DNA of 64,000 nucleotides from Terriglobia bacterium (GTDB taxonomy: Bacteria > Acidobacteriota > Terriglobia > JAJPHL01 > JAPKYU01): contig CBDCVK010000010.1 of the NCBI GenBank assembly GCA_965223005.1, forward strand, positions 256,001 through 320,000, in the 5' to 3' direction. The notes under the pieces are model-generated. The model ran no database searches. It was given only the letters and a program-made list of their open reading frames with translations, and was not told the origin of the DNA. The position numbers and the translations under genes are program-made. This document shows positions 1,494 to 15,628 of the stretch, in pieces (within the stretch, counting starts at the first letter, position 1; each line of letters begins with the position of its first letter).

Positions 1494-2504
1494 ATGCGAC
1501 GAAAAGTCATACTCAAAGCGCTGCGAGCAGTTCTGCTCGTGGAATTACTGTTCTTGCTGTTCGTTGGTCTGCAGTGGATTTACCCGGGAATGATCTGGTT
1601 CTTCATCGGTGGCGCTGGCCATTTGAGAGACCCGCATTGCTCAACTCTCAAGGCTGTGTGGGCGTCCCGCATCGTGAAAGCGGAGGAGGCTGCGGTAAAG
1701 AAAATCGCAGCCGAAACCCGACGCGTCGCTGTCGATGGAGACCTGGAGTTGCTGCAAACACCGGCAGGTCGCTACCTGGTTCCCGGCAATACGTCGGAAT
1801 CAAAACCAAGCTCGGGCAACCTCCTTGCAATACTTCTGGCTCAACAGCAGCGGGGCATTTACGGAAATTCGGAGTGGGGCGTTCGTTCCGGAGATACCGT
1901 GCTGGACGCCGGTGCACATGTCGGAGTTTTCACCCGGAAGGCGCTCGATTCCGGCGCGGCGTTGGTTGTCGCCATCGAACCTTCCCCGAAGGCAATCCGC
2001 TGCCTCCGACGAAACTTCGCTTCCGAGATTTCGGCCGGGCGGGTCATCGTTTATCCGAAGGGTGTCTGGAACCGGGACGAGATACTCACCTTCTATTTGA
2101 ACACCATCACTGGCGCTGGGGACAGCTTCCTCATTGCTGCTGGACAGCCATCCACACTCCAAGTTCCGGTAGTTACAGTCGATACCCTGGTGCGCGAACT
2201 CCGCCTGCCGCGCGTGGATTTCATCAAGGCCGACATAAAGGGAGCAAGTGCCCGCATGGTTCAAGGCGCCCGCGAAACTCTGACCGCGTACCGACCAAGG
2301 CTTGTTTTTGCAACAGAGGAGGTTGAAGACGAACCCCTCTTGATTGAGGAGGCAGTGCATCAAGCTTGCCCCGGATGCTACGAGATGAAGTGCGGCCCGT
2401 GTCGGGTTGGCGGCTGGCTCTGGGCCATTGGCGGCCACCGCGAAGTCTACATGGAGACGCTTTTCTTCCGGGCTGTGCCGGGCACCTCGCGAGTGGCCCA
2501 ATGA
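1494..2504 (+). CDS. FkbM family methyltransferase with N-terminal membrane anchor
   Basis: VLDAGAHVG SAM motif, IEPSP, VDFIKADIKG; hydrophobic N-terminus; ATG 1494 preferred to 1425. Confidence 0.8.
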   Translation: MRRKVILKALRAVLLVELLFLLFVGLQWIYPGMIWFFIGGAGHLRDPHCSTLKAVWASRIVKAEEAAVKKIAAETRRVAVDGDLELLQTPAGRYLVPGNTSESKPSSGNLLAILLAQQQRGIYGNSEWGVRSGDTVLDAGAHVGVFTRKALDSGAALVVAIEPSPKAIRCLRRNFASEISAGRVIVYPKGVWNRDEILTFYLNTITGAGDSFLIAAGQPSTLQVPVVTVDTLVRELRLPRVDFIKADIKGASARMVQGARETLTAYRPRLVFATEEVEDEPLLIEEAVHQACPGCYEMKCGPCRVGGWLWAIGGHREVYMETLFFRAVPGTSRVAQ

Positions 2505-2601
2505 ACCGGTAACAGAGGGAGAGGCACCTTGCGCGCTCAAGCAGCACCGCACCGCAGGAATGATTTGCAGGCCTGCGGGCATTTCGATACTTTGTAACGG
2601 C

Positions 2602-4026
2602 ATGGAGCAGCAGGCCGAAGGCGCAGTTCCTATAGACCCCTACAGACTATCGGAAGACGCGGTCCAGGAGCCGCCGACTTCGCTGCTGCAATCGTTGCGA
2701 AGGATCGGCCCCGGGCTGATCCTGGCCGGCTCCATCGTCGGCACCGGAGAGCTGATCGCCACCACACACGTAGGCGCGCAGGCGGGCTTCGCCCTGCTGT
2801 GGCTGGTGATTGTGAGTTGCTTCATCAAGACGTTCGCGCAGATCGAGCTGGCGCGCTACACCATCTCCTCAGGCCTGACCACGTTCGCCGCGTTTCGGCA
2901 ACTGCCCGGGCCGGGCTTCTTGCTGCCCTGGTGGTGGTTGGTGATGGCGGTGACAGCCCAAACGCAGGTGGCGGCCATGGTGGGCGGCATAGGCCAGGCG
3001 GTCCACATGGCCGTGCCAGGCGTTTCCTCTGCAATCGCTGAAGGCGTGGGCTTGGCTGCCCGACCCGAGCTGCCCTGGGCCGTGCTGATCGCGCTGCTGG
3101 TTGCAACGCTGACGGCAGTGGGCAGCTACGGGGTGGTGGAGCGCGGCACCACCTTGCTGGTGGCGGTCTTCACCTTGATGACGGTGGGCTGCGTGCTGCT
3201 GTTGCCCTGGACGGGCCACTCGTTTGGTTGGCGCGAGATCTCCTCCGGCCTTTCCTTTCAGATTCCCGCCCATGCAATCGGGCCGGCCTTCGCCATGTTT
3301 GGCCTCACCGGGGTGGCAGCCTCCGAACTGATCGCCTACCCCTACTTTTGCATCGAGAAAGGCTATGCGCGCCACGTCGGCCCGCGCAGCACGGATGAGG
3401 CCTGGATCCGACGCGCCCGCGGGTGGCTGCGCGTGGTGCACTTGGACGCCTTTCTGAGCATGGTCGTGTTCACGGTGGCCACAGTGGCCTTCTATCTGCT
3501 AGGGGCCTCGGTCTTACACCAATACACCGGGCCGGAAGGGTTGCCGGGTACTGTCAGCGGCATGCTGCAAGTGCTTTCGCAAATGTACGTGCCCGTGCTG
3601 GGCGAGCGCGTGGCGCTCTGGTTCATTGTGATCGGCGCCTTTTCCGTGCTGTTCTCTAGTTTCTTTGTCTCCACGGCCACCATCGGTCGCACCCTGACCG
3701 ATTTTCTGAAGGTCAACGGCTTTATCCAGCTTGCCCACCCGGGCGACCGGTGGTGGTGGATTCGCCGTTTCTGCTTCGTGTTTCCGTTTCTGCATCTCTT
3801 CCTGTTTGTGTGGGTTGCCAACCCAGTGCAGTTGGTCATCATTGGTGGGTTCGGCCAGGCCCTGACGCTGCCCATGATCGCCGCCGCTGCCGTCTACATG
3901 CGCTACCGCAGAAGCGACCGTCGCCTCACCCCAGGCTTGCTGTGGGATGCTTTCCTGTGGCTTTCCCTGCTGTGCTTCTTCGCCACCGCCTTCTACGGCG
4001 TCTGGAACACCTACCAGAAGCTGTAG
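2602..4026 (+). CDS. Nramp/APC superfamily transporter
   Basis: IGPGLILAGSIVGTGELI motif, many TM helices; ATG 2602 preferred. Confidence 0.8.
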   Translation: MEQQAEGAVPIDPYRLSEDAVQEPPTSLLQSLRRIGPGLILAGSIVGTGELIATTHVGAQAGFALLWLVIVSCFIKTFAQIELARYTISSGLTTFAAFRQLPGPGFLLPWWWLVMAVTAQTQVAAMVGGIGQAVHMAVPGVSSAIAEGVGLAARPELPWAVLIALLVATLTAVGSYGVVERGTTLLVAVFTLMTVGCVLLLPWTGHSFGWREISSGLSFQIPAHAIGPAFAMFGLTGVAASELIAYPYFCIEKGYARHVGPRSTDEAWIRRARGWLRVVHLDAFLSMVVFTVATVAFYLLGASVLHQYTGPEGLPGTVSGMLQVLSQMYVPVLGERVALWFIVIGAFSVLFSSFFVSTATIGRTLTDFLKVNGFIQLAHPGDRWWWIRRFCFVFPFLHLFLFVWVANPVQLVIIGGFGQALTLPMIAAAAVYMRYRRSDRRLTPGLLWDAFLWLSLLCFFATAFYGVWNTYQKL

Positions 4027-12721: not shown

Positions 12722-13003
12722 GAACCTCTCCTTTGTTCGTGAGACGATGTTGTCAAACATTAGGCTTGGCTAGAACTTGGACCGTTCCAGGACACTGCGA
12801 TCCCCCCATCCTGGGTGGAGGTCCTCCAGTCGGACGTCGACCCTGCCAATATACATTTGAAACTAGTAGGGCGCTTGAACTATTCCCTGATGTTGTCGAG
12901 ACGCCATCAGGCCGGCAACTGCCTCATCCAAAAGTCGCGGATGTGATACAAGACCCTCGGTGACAGGTAGAGCAATCGACTGAGGAAGAGGAACTGGAGG
13001 CTA

Positions 13004-13967
13004 ATGCAAGAAGCCGGGCAATTCCTTCTTGAGCATGGCTACGCGGTCCTGTTCGCCCTGGTGTTCGCCGAGCAGATCGGCCTCCCCCTGCCTGCTATTC
13101 CCATCCTGCTGGCGACGGGGGCGATGGCCAGCACGGGCCATTTCTCTTTCACCCTGGCGCTGTTGGTGGCTGGTCTGGCTGCAGTGCTGGCCGACTGGAT
13201 CTGGTACCAGCTGGGCCGCCGCCGCGGCCACTCGGTCCTGAACCTGCTTTGCAGGATCTCCCTGGAGCCTGATTCCTGTGTGCGCCGCACGGAAGACGTC
13301 TTTGCCCGGCACGGCGCCCGCGCTCTGCTGTTTGCCAAGTTTGTTCCCGGCCTGAACGTTGTGGCGCCCCCGCTGGCTGGCATGCTGCGCATGCGCTTGG
13401 GGCGCTTTCTGGTATTCGACGGCCTCGGAGCGCTCTTCTGGGCGGGAGCGTTTGCTGGAGCAGGCTTTCTATTCGCCTCGCAGCTCGAGCGAGCGGCAGC
13501 CCAGGCTGCGCGGCTGGGGGCGTGGCTGCTTGTCCTGCTCCTTGCCGCGCTGGCCGGCTTCCTGGGTTGGAAGTACGCGCAGCGCCAGCGTTTTCTCCGC
13601 CAACTCCTCATCGCCCGCATCCACCCAAAAGAACTGATGGAGAAGCTGGAAGCCGGGGGGGGAGATGGTCATCGTGGACCTGCGCCACTTGATCACGTTT
13701 GAGGCGGACGGCGAAAAAGTGCCCGGCGCCCTGCACCTGCCACCCGAGCAACTGGATGCCCGCCACCAGGAGATCCCCCGGGACCGGGACGTGGTTCTCT
13801 ACTGCACGTGACCCAACGAAGCCACCAGCGCCCGGGTGGCGCTGCTGCTTCGTCGCCGGGGCATCTCACGGGTCCGTCCGCTGACCGGGGGCTTCGATGC
13901 CTGGCGCGCCGCAGGCTTTCCTCTGGAATCTGTAGCATCGCCTGGCGTTGCCAGTACAGCGCGATGA
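13004..13967 (+). CDS. DedA (VTT) domain-rhodanese fusion, predicted selenoprotein; +1 indel in G8 run 13655-13662, TGA=Sec at 13809-13811
   Basis: DedA motifs (EQIGLPLP, AKFVPG); after removing one G reads VIVDLR...VPGA...VVLYCT-TGA-PNEATSARVA...LTGGFDAW to TGA 13965-13967. Confidence 0.8.
13818..13851 (+). promoter_or_regulatory. Bacterial SECIS-like hairpin
   Basis: GAAGC-cac-CAGCGCC-cgggt-GGCGCTG-ct-GCTTC; apical loop 21 nt after the TGA with G at loop position 2. Confidence 0.65.
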
Positions 13968-13987
13968 CTGACCCGGCGGATCGCACC

Positions 13988-14016
13988 TTGACCCTAAGTG
14001 AAAGTGCAGATAGACT
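13988..14016 (+). promoter_or_regulatory. Sigma70-like promoter
   Basis: TTGACC-17 nt-TAGACT ahead of AAGGAG RBS and ATG 14034. Confidence 0.55.
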
Positions 14017-14033
14017 TAGAAGAAGGAGATTGT

Positions 14034-14573
14034 ATGTTGAGGCGCTGCACACTGTTGCTGGTGCTGGGTTTAGTCGTGGCTGTCACGCCGCTGACGGCCC
14101 AACTCCGCATCGGTGCGCGTCACGGCGGGCATCGCTTTCACAGCAGCTTCAGAGGAGGCTTCGGTTTCGCCTCCCACCGCAGCTTTTTTGCGCCTCGCTT
14201 CTTCGGCTCCGGGCTGTACCCGTACCACTTCGGATTCGGAGGCATTTCCCCACGGTTTGCTTATGGGGTGCCGATGGCCCGGCGCCCGCAGTATCGGGTA
14301 TGGGTTTTGGGCGCGACGCACGACTGGCGGTACTGGGACCCCACCTCTGGGATCGTCGAGGGGCCGCTGGTGGACAGCTCCGCGCATCAGGCCACCGGCG
14401 AAAGCGTTCCGCAGCCCTTCCTGGACAGCCGCGTCATCGGCATGGGGATCCCGCAGTGGGCACTCGGGAACCAGGAACCGTTGGGGAATGTGGCGCGGCG
14501 CCACCGGGCGCTGGCCGAGCGGACCCGCTCCGCCAGACCTCTGCTTGCCGCGCATCGCATCGAGCGGCCCTAG
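14034..14573 (+). CDS. Hypothetical secreted protein with G/F/H/R-rich N-terminal region
   Basis: RBS, signal peptide MLRRCTLLLVLGLVVAVTPLTA, C-terminal PLGNVARRHR. Confidence 0.6.
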   Translation: MLRRCTLLLVLGLVVAVTPLTAQLRIGARHGGHRFHSSFRGGFGFASHRSFFAPRFFGSGLYPYHFGFGGISPRFAYGVPMARRPQYRVWVLGATHDWRYWDPTSGIVEGPLVDSSAHQATGESVPQPFLDSRVIGMGIPQWALGNQEPLGNVARRHRALAERTRSARPLLAAHRIERP

Positions 14574-14749: not shown

Positions 14750-15628
14750 TCAGACGTAATCGGAGCAGGACATGTAGTAGCTGCAGCGGGAGCAGACCAG
14801 TTTGCATTTCTGCTCCACGAGGGGCGTACCGCAGTTGGGGCAAAACTTGGAGGGGGAAGCTTCCTCAGAATGCGCTTTCGAGTTCACGTGTTGCAGTGGC
14901 TTGGCGCCGGTGTGGGCGATGAGGCAAGTGGGTTTGCCTTTGGTGTCGCGGGCTTGCGACAGAGCGTCCAATAATTGCCGCATGTCGTGCCCATCCGCTA
15001 TGAGCGTCTGCCAGTTGAGGGACTTCCACTTGGGCTCCATTGGCTCGAGCTCCAGCAGTTTCTTGACCCGTTTGTCGAGCTGCGGGTAGTCGTAATCCAC
15101 AATGACGCACAGATGGTCGGCTTTGTGGAAGCTGCCCCACATGGCGGACTCCCAAAACTGGTCCTCCAGAATGTCCTGGTTGCCAAGCAGGACGTAGACA
15201 CGATAGTCCACCTGCTCGAGCCGCCCGGCTAGCGCCGCACCCAGCCCTAGCGACAGCCCATCGCCCAACGCCGCGCTGGAGGCTTCCAGCACCGGCAGCA
15301 TGTGCTTGTCGAGAGGGTGCGGAAGCCGGCTGCCAGCCTTGCACAAGCTCGGCAGCAAATCGCGAGGCAGGTAGCCAGCTTCGACATAGGCGCAGTAGAA
15401 AAGGGGCGCGCCGTGCCCTTTGCTCAAGAACAGGCGGTCGCGTTTCTCCCAGCCTGGCCGAGCCGGGTCGTGGCGCAGATGGTTGAAGAATAGGGCGGTC
15501 AGGATTTCGGTAGCCGACAGATGGGAGCTCGGCTGGTCGGAACCAGCCTCGGCGATCGTCCCGAGCAAGGCTTGCCGGATTCGGTTGGCGAGCTGCTCCA
15601 GCTCGACAATGTCTTCAATCTTCTTCAC
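14750..15628 (-). CDS. Degenerate transketolase N-terminal subunit fused to a C-terminal Cys-rich zinc ribbon
   Basis: RDRLFLSKGH, YRVYVLLG, DGHD, KPTCLIAHT; ends CPNCGTPLVEQKCKLVCSRCSYYMSCSDYV. Confidence 0.8.
   Translation of the reverse strand: MKKIEDIVELEQLANRIRQALLGTIAEAGSDQPSSHLSATEILTALFFNHLRHDPARPGWEKRDRLFLSKGHGAPLFYCAYVEAGYLPRDLLPSLCKAGSRLPHPLDKHMLPVLEASSAALGDGLSLGLGAALAGRLEQVDYRVYVLLGNQDILEDQFWESAMWGSFHKADHLCVIVDYDYPQLDKRVKKLLELEPMEPKWKSLNWQTLIADGHDMRQLLDALSQARDTKGKPTCLIAHTGAKPLQHVNSKAHSEEASPSKFCPNCGTPLVEQKCKLVCSRCSYYMSCSDYV

Follow-up and report, generated by a model that had tools for sequence, protein, structure and literature searches.

The locus described here belongs to a conserved family of genes predicted to encode selenocysteine-containing (Sec) DedA-rhodanese proteins, and the copy in this Terriglobia genome is most likely a recent pseudogene that arose by expansion of a G run, a reading to which we give a probability of about 0.68. 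The window, by which we mean the whole 64,000-nt stretch of DNA analysed, displays the following features.

13004-13702, plus strand: DedA/VTT-domain ORF, 232 aa as the DNA stands
Residues 1 to ~200 of this ORF: membrane domain
Residues ~203-218 of this ORF: first rhodanese helix, already inside the DedA ORF, ARIHPKELMEKLEAGG
13 final codons of this ORF, past the G run: out-of-frame tail ending at TGA 13700-13702
C-terminus of the frameshifted (truncated) DedA product: ...EAGGGDGHRGPAPLDHV
13250-13279, plus strand: Cys pair C83-x8-C92 in a loop of the DedA domain, LCRISLEPDSCVRR (TGC 13250-13252, TGT 13277-13279)
13655-13662, plus strand: G8 run, whose one base in excess of the in-frame tract causes a +1 frameshift within the rhodanese domain
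13659-13967, plus strand: remainder of the rhodanese domain, read in the shifted frame (102 codons when the TGA is taken as U), stop TGA 13965-13967
13665, plus strand: ATG, possible internal start in the shifted rhodanese frame
13803-13805, plus strand: catalytic Cys codon TGC, residue 1 of the six-residue loop C-T-U-P-N-E
13809-13811, plus strand: in-frame TGA, the predicted Sec codon of the family, loop residue 3 (CxU)
13816-13853, plus strand: SECIS-like hairpin (lower stem 13816-13822/13847-13853, upper stem 13826-13832/13838-13844)

Read from position 13665, the downstream frame runs MVIVDLRH...VVLYCT, then TGA 13809-13811, then PNEATSARVALLL..., with 51 sense codons, including the conserved RPLxGGxxAW motif, between this TGA and the stop TGA 13965-13967. 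The DedA and rhodanese frames overlap by 65 nt (13638-13702), a segment that contains the G8 run, and removal of one G produces the junction LEAGGEMVIVDLRH, which aligns to EAGEEVTVLDLRH and the like in single-frame orthologues. An earlier note, made from the letters alone, had pointed to the G8 run, to a Y-C-T-TGA-P-N-E loop and to rhodanese-like sequence beyond the TGA, all of which are present. The flanking genes in the window (an HpcH/HpaI aldolase, an unassigned 191-aa ORF and a transketolase N-terminal domain) have no evident link to the DedA-rhodanese gene. Likewise, a search for shared neighbours around 42 loci gave no operon clue, with no partner present in more than 7 loci when alternative frames of the DedA-rhodanese gene were disregarded.

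Both domains score above their Pfam cut-offs, with 51.9 bits for VTT_dom (PF09335, cut-off 33.9) on the DedA part and 43.1 bits for Rhodanese (PF00581, cut-off 22.2) on the C-terminal part; the NCBIfam DedA and UptA models fall far under theirs on the DedA part (64 vs 236 and 52.5 vs 250, respectively). Both Cys of the C-x8-C pair are invariant in 101/101 aligned sequences (alignment A3), and so is the catalytic Cys (C267). In the structure model of an orthologue (pLDDT 89.7), the loop C267-E272 connects strand 262-266 to helix 273-284, and the G8 frameshift maps between helix 1 and strand 1 of the rhodanese fold. The best PDB matches found with Foldseek are rhodanese domains (~90-130 aligned columns), and no DedA-type membrane protein is among the matches listed. 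From the positive-inside rule, we infer that the rhodanese domain faces the cytoplasm.

We compared the loop column of the in-frame TGA across homologous loci. TGA occupies this column in 38 of 45 class-level loci (37/43 without two unpublished genomes), in 76 of 80 metagenome loci and in 60 of 71 motif-matched loci from named MAGs, the other 7, 4 and 11 loci, respectively, displaying TGC or TGT; altogether these are 174 TGA loci from several phyla with intact downstream frames. The claim that a CxU Sec codon resides on a DedA fusion is thus borne out at the level of the family, and the Cys homologues named in the earlier note, with C-x-C-P-N-E at the loop, were found as C-x-C-P-[NS]-E. In the orthologues, one frame stays open over about 311-420 aa when the TGA is read through; a hand count of 149 listed matches gave 88 with an internal TGA, 56 that are stop-free and 5 with other stops only. 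As anticipated, ORF callers miss the Sec part: in public databases the Sec forms are entered as 268-aa proteins that end at the TGA with ...VVLYCT. When compared to co-occurring strains, the rhodanese frame shows 18 synonymous and 5 non-synonymous changes, with a ratio of 8 : 1 past the TGA, and no variant is listed at TGA 13809-13811 in the contigs compared.

The upper stem of the hairpin starts 14 nt 3' of the TGA and closes a 5-nt loop, CGGGU (13833-13837), which lies 21 nt after the TGA and has a G at position 2. Its predicted fold has a minimum free energy of -22.8 kcal/mol (z = -2.35), which 3 of 200 shuffled sequences equal. The two-stem structure proposed earlier is present in this DNA, but only one of its stems holds up across relatives: the upper stem is paired in 91.5% of cells, in contrast to 54.8% for the lower stem (GAAGC/GCTTC, 13816-13822/13847-13853), which is specific to this sequence. 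The conserved element of the family is a 5-7 bp stem with a 5-nt loop. Among metagenome loci, 6-7 of the 7 stem pairs form in 76/76 Sec forms as compared to 5-6 of 7 in the 4 Cys forms, and among genome loci 6-7 pairs form in 53/60 Sec forms while only 1/11 Cys forms reach this number. Compensatory changes are seen at 2/7 upper-stem pairs (three C-G to G-C changes and four G-C to A-U changes, all four of the latter cells from a single clade); covariation stays modest, as the stem runs through the conserved codons for T-S-A-R-V-A-L. An Rfam scan of 13000-14100 returned two chance-level matches and no SECIS family, which is uninformative since gene-specific bacterial SECIS elements are poorly covered. 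The hairpin is best described as a putative SECIS element, its upper stem being well kept in Sec forms and less so in Cys forms.

The genome encodes the machinery that a Sec codon would require. A genome profile search recovered selD (357 bits), selA (551 bits) and selB (341 bits), all above their cut-offs, together with a tRNA-Sec gene, selC (78.5 bits; anticodon TCA by ARAGORN), so that all four genes looked for were found. The selD gene carries a TGA of its own, and the congeners G001 and G003 retain selA. Could the TGA nevertheless be an ordinary nonsense codon, and the family not selenoproteins at all? The negative Rfam result would fit; yet such a reading would have to account for one TGA column in 174 loci of several phyla with intact frames behind it, for a hairpin that goes with the TGA form, for Cys at this position elsewhere, for the synonymous bias past the TGA and for Sec machinery in the genome, and we consider it extremely improbable. 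Taken together, sequence comparison points to a genuine UGA-encoded Sec column in the CxU rhodanese loop of a membrane DedA-rhodanese fusion, a predicted selenoprotein.

The state of the present copy is a separate matter. The earlier note had proposed a hidden intact selenoprotein that appears once one G is dropped, which treats the extra G as a sequencing or assembly error. Homopolymers are prone to such errors, the very long contigs of the assembly suggest long reads, and dropping one G gives a perfect alignment to the orthologues. However, G8 is found without indel (0 gaps, word depths 11-16 over the run) in contigs of run X7 from study P6 and of runs X8 and X10 from study P7, a comparison of contigs, in which minority G7 alleles would be invisible. 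Run X8 represents separate data, as it carries one private SNP. Since these contigs from three runs and two studies were built independently, G8 appears to be real in the DNA. Furthermore, the tract reads GGGGAGG, 7 nt and in frame, in the congener G001 and in a co-occurring strain of run X11, and we take GGGGAGG as the ancestral state and G8 as derived. An ancestral tract with an A implies a substitution plus an insertion and not a simple length miscall. An intact gene behind a miscalled base is in our view very unlikely. A metagenome scan found no allele of the same species, the best match being 71% identical.

The open frame in this genome (G000) is 109 aa long versus at least 300 aa in relatives; G000 is the only one of 150 listed matches that is split at the G8 point, and frames of at least 300 aa are found in 147 of the 149 other listed matches, the other two being short. 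Within the genus, the gene is damaged in all three other genomes, each time in a different way, as read in representative assemblies: G001, which is 95% identical, carries a 1-nt insertion, a 4-nt deletion and an IS3-like element within the gene; in G002 the gene body (13038-13969) is replaced by ~63 nt in a clean deletion; and in G003 only the final 110 nt are left. The presence of G8 without indel, together with separate lesions in three congeners, indicates that the copy has probably been frameshifted recently and is not a hidden intact selenoprotein. In the DedA part, G000 and G001 differ by 24 synonymous and 6 non-synonymous substitutions; as these are mostly synonymous, the decay of the gene would be recent. 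Several observations speak against the pseudogene reading. Aside from the extra G the copy is pristine, with conserved motifs, TGA and hairpin all intact, and its DedA part shows the 24 : 6 bias; an ATG stands just past the shift, after a G-rich Shine-Dalgarno-like run; and the G001-like strain of run X11 is free of at least two of the G001 lesions.

The position of this ATG raises the possibility of two products, a 232-aa DedA protein and a separate 100-aa Sec-rhodanese fragment initiated at ATG 13665, which might re-associate with the first rhodanese helix in the DedA tail. The ATG directly follows GGGGGGGGAG, the DedA membrane domain is complete, and the fragment keeps the entire active-site loop and the SECIS-like hairpin. 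On the other hand, the Met is an ancestral internal residue (EEMVIVDL) and no new start, the fragment would be devoid of helix 208-216 of the fold as seen in the orthologue model, and no comparable split is seen in relatives, 147 of the 149 other listed matches having frames of at least 300 aa. We regard functional expression as two polypeptides as highly improbable.

Alternatively, G8 may act as a slippage site, where DNA phase variation, RNA polymerase slippage or a ribosomal +1 shift (GGG GGG G) restores the frame and results in a reduced or switchable output of the selenoprotein. The homopolymer sits exactly at the shift, inside the frame overlap, and slippage of DNA, RNA polymerase or ribosomes can occur on tracts of this sort; no further lesion is found downstream, and the G8 allele is fixed in runs of two studies. 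Against this, G8 is a derived accident that is conserved in none of the orthologues read, a typical stimulatory element for a programmed +1 shift was not seen when the sequence was read by eye, and the gene is lost outright in congeners. In addition, the genome has 46 G/C runs and 36 A/T runs of at least 8 nt (a simple frameshift-flagging rule applied to it missed the present locus itself), and many other G/C runs of this length lie within open frames, an argument against a high slippage rate on them. Slippage thus seems an unlikely explanation; should it be true, homopolymer slippage and Sec insertion in one gene would together govern how much of a membrane selenoenzyme is made, and peptides of a rescued product would span LEAGGEMVIVDLR or YCTUPNEATSAR. 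A more elaborate version, in which G8 and the UGA are stacked recoding or switch points and the CxU loop and CX8C pair make a four-chalcogen relay for selenite or persulfide at a DedA transporter, is one that we put forward only speculatively and with low expectations.

The recent pseudogene remains the preferred reading. In its intact form, the protein would carry one C-terminal rhodanese domain behind a DedA/VTT membrane domain, the UGA at 13809 being read as selenocysteine through the SelB pathway with the help of the short hairpin downstream. The selenol would be placed two residues past the catalytic Cys, in the loop C-T-U-P-N-E, and together with the invariant CX8C pair of the DedA part it would probably make up a thiol/selenol relay at the membrane, with a sulfur or selenium species as substrate; the earlier note had suggested that the protein may move or reduce S/Se species there. 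In this genome the G run has grown by one base (GGGGAGG to G8) inside the rhodanese domain, leaving DNA that, as it stands, encodes only the 232-aa DedA protein, with no functional rhodanese domain and the Sec part out of frame. The genus thus appears to be losing the DedA-rhodanese gene while retaining the selenocysteine machinery.

Among known systems, NF041203 (rhodanese_LYCAU) is the nearest catalogued family and the best NCBIfam match of the rhodanese domain, with an E value of 4.2e-22 and 78.1 bits, below the cut-off of 115. As in NF041203, whose selenoprotein status is also predicted, a rhodanese fold carries an L-Y-C-x-U motif (LYCTU at 13797-13811) with Sec two residues past the catalytic Cys; in contrast to the stand-alone NF041203 proteins of ~126 aa, the domain described here is the C-terminal part of a DedA/VTT protein of ~320 aa with an additional invariant CX8C. 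Cys-type DedA-rhodanese fusions share the architecture: they have the same two domains, a like length (313-335 aa) and 55-66% identity to the Sec orthologue query, and differ by a Cys at loop residue 3 (C-T-C-P-[NS]-E) and a relaxed hairpin. They are annotated as 'membrane protein DedA with SNARE-associated domain/rhodanese-related sulfurtransferase' (JGI) or as 'DedA family protein/thiosulfate sulfurtransferase GlpE' (NCBI). E. coli YgaP (PDB 5hbl/5hbo/5hbq) likewise anchors one rhodanese domain in the inner membrane, though it is without Sec. Its structural match to the rhodanese part comes at Foldseek ranks 38-42 (E about 5e-4, 19-22% identity). YgaP, whose rhodanese domain precedes two TM helices, is not known to have a DedA domain. 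TsoB (NF045694, a rhodanese/DsbD fusion-like selenoprotein), listed as rhodanese form 5 in PMC13188914, resembles the present family as a Sec-carrying fusion of a membrane protein and a rhodanese, but has a DsbD-like membrane partner and a UxxxxU motif, and its model matches our protein only marginally (17.8 bits vs a cut-off of 805). Finally, the DedA family itself (E. coli DedA/YqjA type; the undecaprenyl-phosphate transporter UptA) shares the VTT domain above the Pfam cut-off, while what sets this subfamily apart is its CX8C pair and fused rhodanese domain. DedA has been implicated in selenite uptake on the basis of Ralstonia metallidurans DedA mutants, according to a review (PMC11422209). 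The selenoprotein reviews searched contain 0 occurrences of DedA, VTT or SNARE, and the survey tables cited by PMC13188914 and PMC9312934 may list DedA-fused CxU rhodaneses.

With this family, the predicted CxU rhodanese selenoproteins would gain a form that is fused to DedA and bound to the membrane, and that gene callers systematically cut at 268 aa in Acidobacteriota, Methylomirabilota/Rokubacteria and some Proteobacteria MAGs. Its four invariant Cys/Sec residues offer a testable redox relay on a protein of the DedA family, for which the substrates are under debate and a link to selenite uptake has been made. The present copy is also a warning case, as a conserved Sec codon and a SECIS-like element do not guarantee a functional copy. 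Altogether, the genus appears to retain its Sec machinery and yet to drop one selenoprotein via four different lesions.

The earlier note described a DedA/VTT reading frame, a run of eight G residues, a rhodanese frame and an in-frame TGA, all of which were found in the sequence as described.

Features of the locus in the window
ATG 13004 to TGA 13700-13702, + strand: DedA/VTT open reading frame of 232 aa (PF09335, 51.9 bits, cut-off 33.9)
13655-13662, + strand: G8 run, read directly from the sequence
frame of 13665, + strand: rhodanese domain (PF00581, 43.1 bits, cut-off 22.2)
13809-13811, + strand: in-frame TGA, preceded by ...DRDVVLYCT and followed by PNEATSARVALLLRRRGISRVRPLTGGFDAWRAAGFPLE...

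Past this TGA the rhodanese frame runs for 51 sense codons to a TGA at 13965-13967, in agreement with the roughly 50 codons proposed previously. With one G removed from the G8 run the junction reads LEAGGEMVIVDLRH and aligns without gaps to EAGEEVTVLDLRH, DAGEPIVVVDLRN and similar sequences from orthologues encoded in a single open frame. As the sequence stands, the 232-aa product keeps the whole DedA domain and lacks the rhodanese domain; an orthologue's model places the shift after the first helix of the rhodanese fold and ahead of its first strand. Just downstream, 13998-14573 (+) encodes a 191-aa protein with a signal-like N terminus and no Pfam match, which keeps 78-89% DNA identity in the congeners G002 and G003 despite deletion of the DedA-rhodanese gene there. 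It is followed at 14750-15628 (-) by a transketolase N-terminal-domain protein (PF00456, 93 bits), whose Cys-rich C-terminal tail, CPNCG…CSRCSYYMSC, has the look of a zinc ribbon.

Searches with the rhodanese part, first in 40 relatives and later in 300 genomes from the class, gave orthologues in 175 of 301 genomes (E <= 1e-12). Among the 149 matches listed besides the window's own (69 further matches fall outside this count), a hand count gave 88 with a TGA inside, 56 without a stop and five with another stop only; when TGA is read through, the open frame spans ~311-420 aa in all matches listed but those of G158 and G049 (130 and 146 aa). TGA/Cys pairs do occur at the column, which was read directly in the 45 fetched loci carrying the motif (one further locus, L043, is without it) as TGA in 38 and as TGC or TGT in seven; leaving aside two genomes flagged unpublished, G096 (locus L051, Cys form) and G293 (L056, Sec form), TGA stands in 37 of 43. 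The best 80 metagenome contigs gave 76 TGA and 4 Cys, and 80 named genome contigs gave 60 TGA, 11 Cys and 9 without a match to the motif pattern, sets picked by similarity to the window's protein, whose proportions are not estimates of prevalence. By their titles, Sec-form records come from Terriglobia, Bryobacteraceae/Bryobacterales, Acidoferrales, Acidobacteriaceae, Thermoanaerobaculia, Rokubacteria/Methylomirabilota, Nevskia soli, an uncultured gammaproteobacterium, a 'delta proteobacterium' and a Spirochaetaceae MAG. In a more distant subfamily, whose rhodanese part is 32-39% identical, the motif survives as YLYCTU[LR]N[ED]ATS. Judged on this conservation, the TGA at 13809-13811 is predicted to be the conserved selenocysteine codon of the family, for which the idea of a DedA protein with Sec in its CxU rhodanese loop holds.

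The selA, selB, selC and selD genes are all present in the window's own genome, G000. Its selA (551 bits), selB (341 bits) and selD (357 bits, TIGR00476; locus L001, G000:C10:916629-917552) score above curated cut-offs, and the tRNA-Sec (78.5 bits) has the anticodon TCA according to ARAGORN. The selD gene has one in-frame TGA of its own, and SelD is probably Sec-containing. The genome also holds a second rhodanese selenoprotein candidate (G000:C9:112400-112900, match C9:112577-112765), a small protein with a hydrophobic, signal-like N terminus and an in-frame TGA in place of the canonical catalytic Cys (…RLVFYUQGGGRAS…); this UxxG type figures among the rhodanese selenoprotein kinds listed in reviews.

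A two-stem hairpin had been proposed 3' of the TGA; in the window its folding energy is -22.8 kcal/mol (z = -2.35), a stability matched by 3 of 200 shuffles. Across 37 Sec forms aligned from the TGA onward (L056 left out), the upper stem, columns 18-24 with 30-36, is conserved (91.5% of cells paired), but the lower stem GAAGC/GCTTC is paired in only 54.8% and is therefore not a family feature. Compensatory change affects two of the seven upper-stem pairs: 18:36 goes from C-G to G-C three times and to G-U once, and 22:32 from G-C to A-U four times, probably a single event since all four lie in one clade. Covariation of this SECIS-like stem is modest because the stem sits in conserved codons. 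RNAalifold retains the inner 5 bp and the 5-nt loop, whose second position is always G, part of a conserved Arg codon; no Rfam match was reported at the hairpin. Cys forms, several of them with the same encoded peptide as Sec forms, serve as the best control: the seven from fetched loci keep 4, 4, 4, 5, 6, 6 and 7 of 7 pairs, and most Sec forms 6-7. Metagenome Sec forms have 7/7 pairs in 62 loci and 6/7 in 14, their Cys counterparts 5, 5, 5 and 6; in named genomes, Sec forms have 7, 6, 5 and 4 pairs in 38, 15, 2 and 5 loci, and Cys forms 3 (1 locus), 4 (6 loci), 5 (3 loci) and 7 (1 locus).

The frameshift at G8 appears to be real, and is in itself an ordinary type of lesion. Independent contigs of sequencing runs X7 (study P6) and X8 and X10 (study P7) cover G8 without inserted or missing letters, with word depths of 11-16 at the G run; contigs are blind to minority alleles, and the assembly itself may derive from one of the three runs. 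A single SNP at 14022 sets X8 apart from the window and marks it as separate data. The assumption of the earlier note that one G could simply be removed is therefore not supported, with G8 kept in three runs from two studies, and a sequencing error in an intact gene is improbable. A related-strain contig of run X11 fits the window to 13658 and continues GCC GGG GAG GAG ATG GTG ATC GTA GAC CTG, in frame, with the 7-nt tract GGGGAGG; the same tract occurs in the congener G001, so that G8 represents an A-to-G change plus one extra G. Across all contigs of G000 we counted 46 homopolymers of G or C (8-11 nt) and 36 of A or T (8-9 nt). Many of them are inside long open frames, and a handful may mark further frameshifts (for example C5:272931-272941 and C9:62900-62907).

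X11 contigs of related strains diverge from the window by 5-10% over 13694-13931, with no variant listed at the TGA codon. Their rhodanese frame differs at 23 positions, 18 synonymous and five non-synonymous. Past the TGA the count is eight to one, the sole replacement being an N-to-S change found in other orthologues too, and this bias argues that the part was translated in the lineage's recent past.

In the congeners the gene is damaged in other ways. G001 is 95% identical over 12763-13690, but one nucleotide is inserted after 13065 and four are deleted near 13672, lesions absent from a G001-like X11 strain; homology stops near 13682 at an IS3-like transposase, and the 3' part was not found elsewhere in the G001 genome. 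The IS3-like element (~2460-3620 of locus L071, G001:C2:722610-726535), which consists of an orfA-like ORF and, behind it, one for a DDE transposase, sits at the very point where similarity to the rhodanese part of the window's gene stops. G002 has ~63 unrelated bases in place of 13038-13969, with intact flanks on one contig, and G003 keeps only the last 110 nt (13860-13969, 84% identity) beside conserved downstream genes. Thus each of the four genomes of the genus carries a different lesion. Elsewhere in this taxonomic family, an intact Sec form is present in one more genome, G006, and two others (72% and 94% complete) gave no match with the rhodanese query. Since selA is retained in G001 and G003, and G000 has SelD and the other rhodanese candidate, the loss is specific to the DedA-rhodanese gene. 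Between G000 and G001 the DedA part shows 24 synonymous and six non-synonymous substitutions. From these comparisons the lesions appear recent and the gene seems to be decaying in the genus. The simplest reading, which we hold at about two in three, is that the G000 copy is a recently frameshifted pseudogene of the fusion, from which a plain DedA protein is possibly still made. Slippage on the G8 run, restoring the full frame, is an unlikely account of the same copy; split expression as two products is less probable still, as a fragment started at ATG 13665 would, in the orthologue model, be without the first rhodanese helix.

The best NCBIfam match of the window's rhodanese domain is NF041203 ('rhodanese_LYCAU, rhodanese-related (seleno)protein'), at 78.1 bits below its cut-off of 115; that model describes a stand-alone protein of 126 residues, unlike the domain of the DedA fusion. 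The CxU rhodanese family of NF041203 is listed as a predicted selenoprotein in two reviews (PMC13188914, PMC9312934), in which DedA, VTT and SNARE are absent. A full-text literature search found no paper combining DedA, selenoprotein and rhodanese, nor did the titles retrieved on DedA/selenocysteine and CxU rhodanese selenocysteine describe the fusion. As anticipated, ORF callers miss the Sec forms, which protein databases carry under 'VTT domain-containing protein' or 'membrane protein DedA' as 268-aa entries ending at ...VVLYCT; the Cys forms, entered at full length (313-335 aa), go by the name DedA/rhodanese-related sulfurtransferase. The fusion family adds a new architecture to a known, predicted kind of selenoprotein.

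For an intact orthologue that shares 63-64% identity with the window's parts, AlphaFold gives a confident model (pLDDT 89.7, pTM 0.81), with nine helices to residue 200 and then a rhodanese fold. Loop 267-272, between strand 262-266 and helix 273-284, is what we take to be the six-residue cradle of sulfurtransferase-type rhodaneses. Foldseek listed proteins with rhodanese domains, aligned over ~90-130 columns, such as 3tp9, the persulfide dioxygenase-rhodanese fusion 5ve3 and YgaP, with no DedA-type membrane protein among them. The basic stretch WKYAQRQRFLRQ past the last helix suggests a cytoplasmic rhodanese domain. Four Cys/Sec positions are invariant in 101 aligned sequences: C83 and C92, a CX8C pair in the DedA part (LCRISLEPDSC, window 13250-13279) for which the literature available gave no earlier description; C267, the canonical rhodanese Cys; and column 269 (U or C). 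Neighbourhoods of the fetched loci held no conserved gene giving a functional clue. According to a review (PMC11422209), DedA is implicated in selenite uptake by Ralstonia metallidurans DedA mutants. In the intact protein, Cys267 would take on sulfane sulfur or selenium, the selenol two residues later would resolve it as a selenenylsulfide, the CX8C pair may recycle the equivalents or hand them on, and the DedA domain may bring or clear the substrate across or within the membrane.
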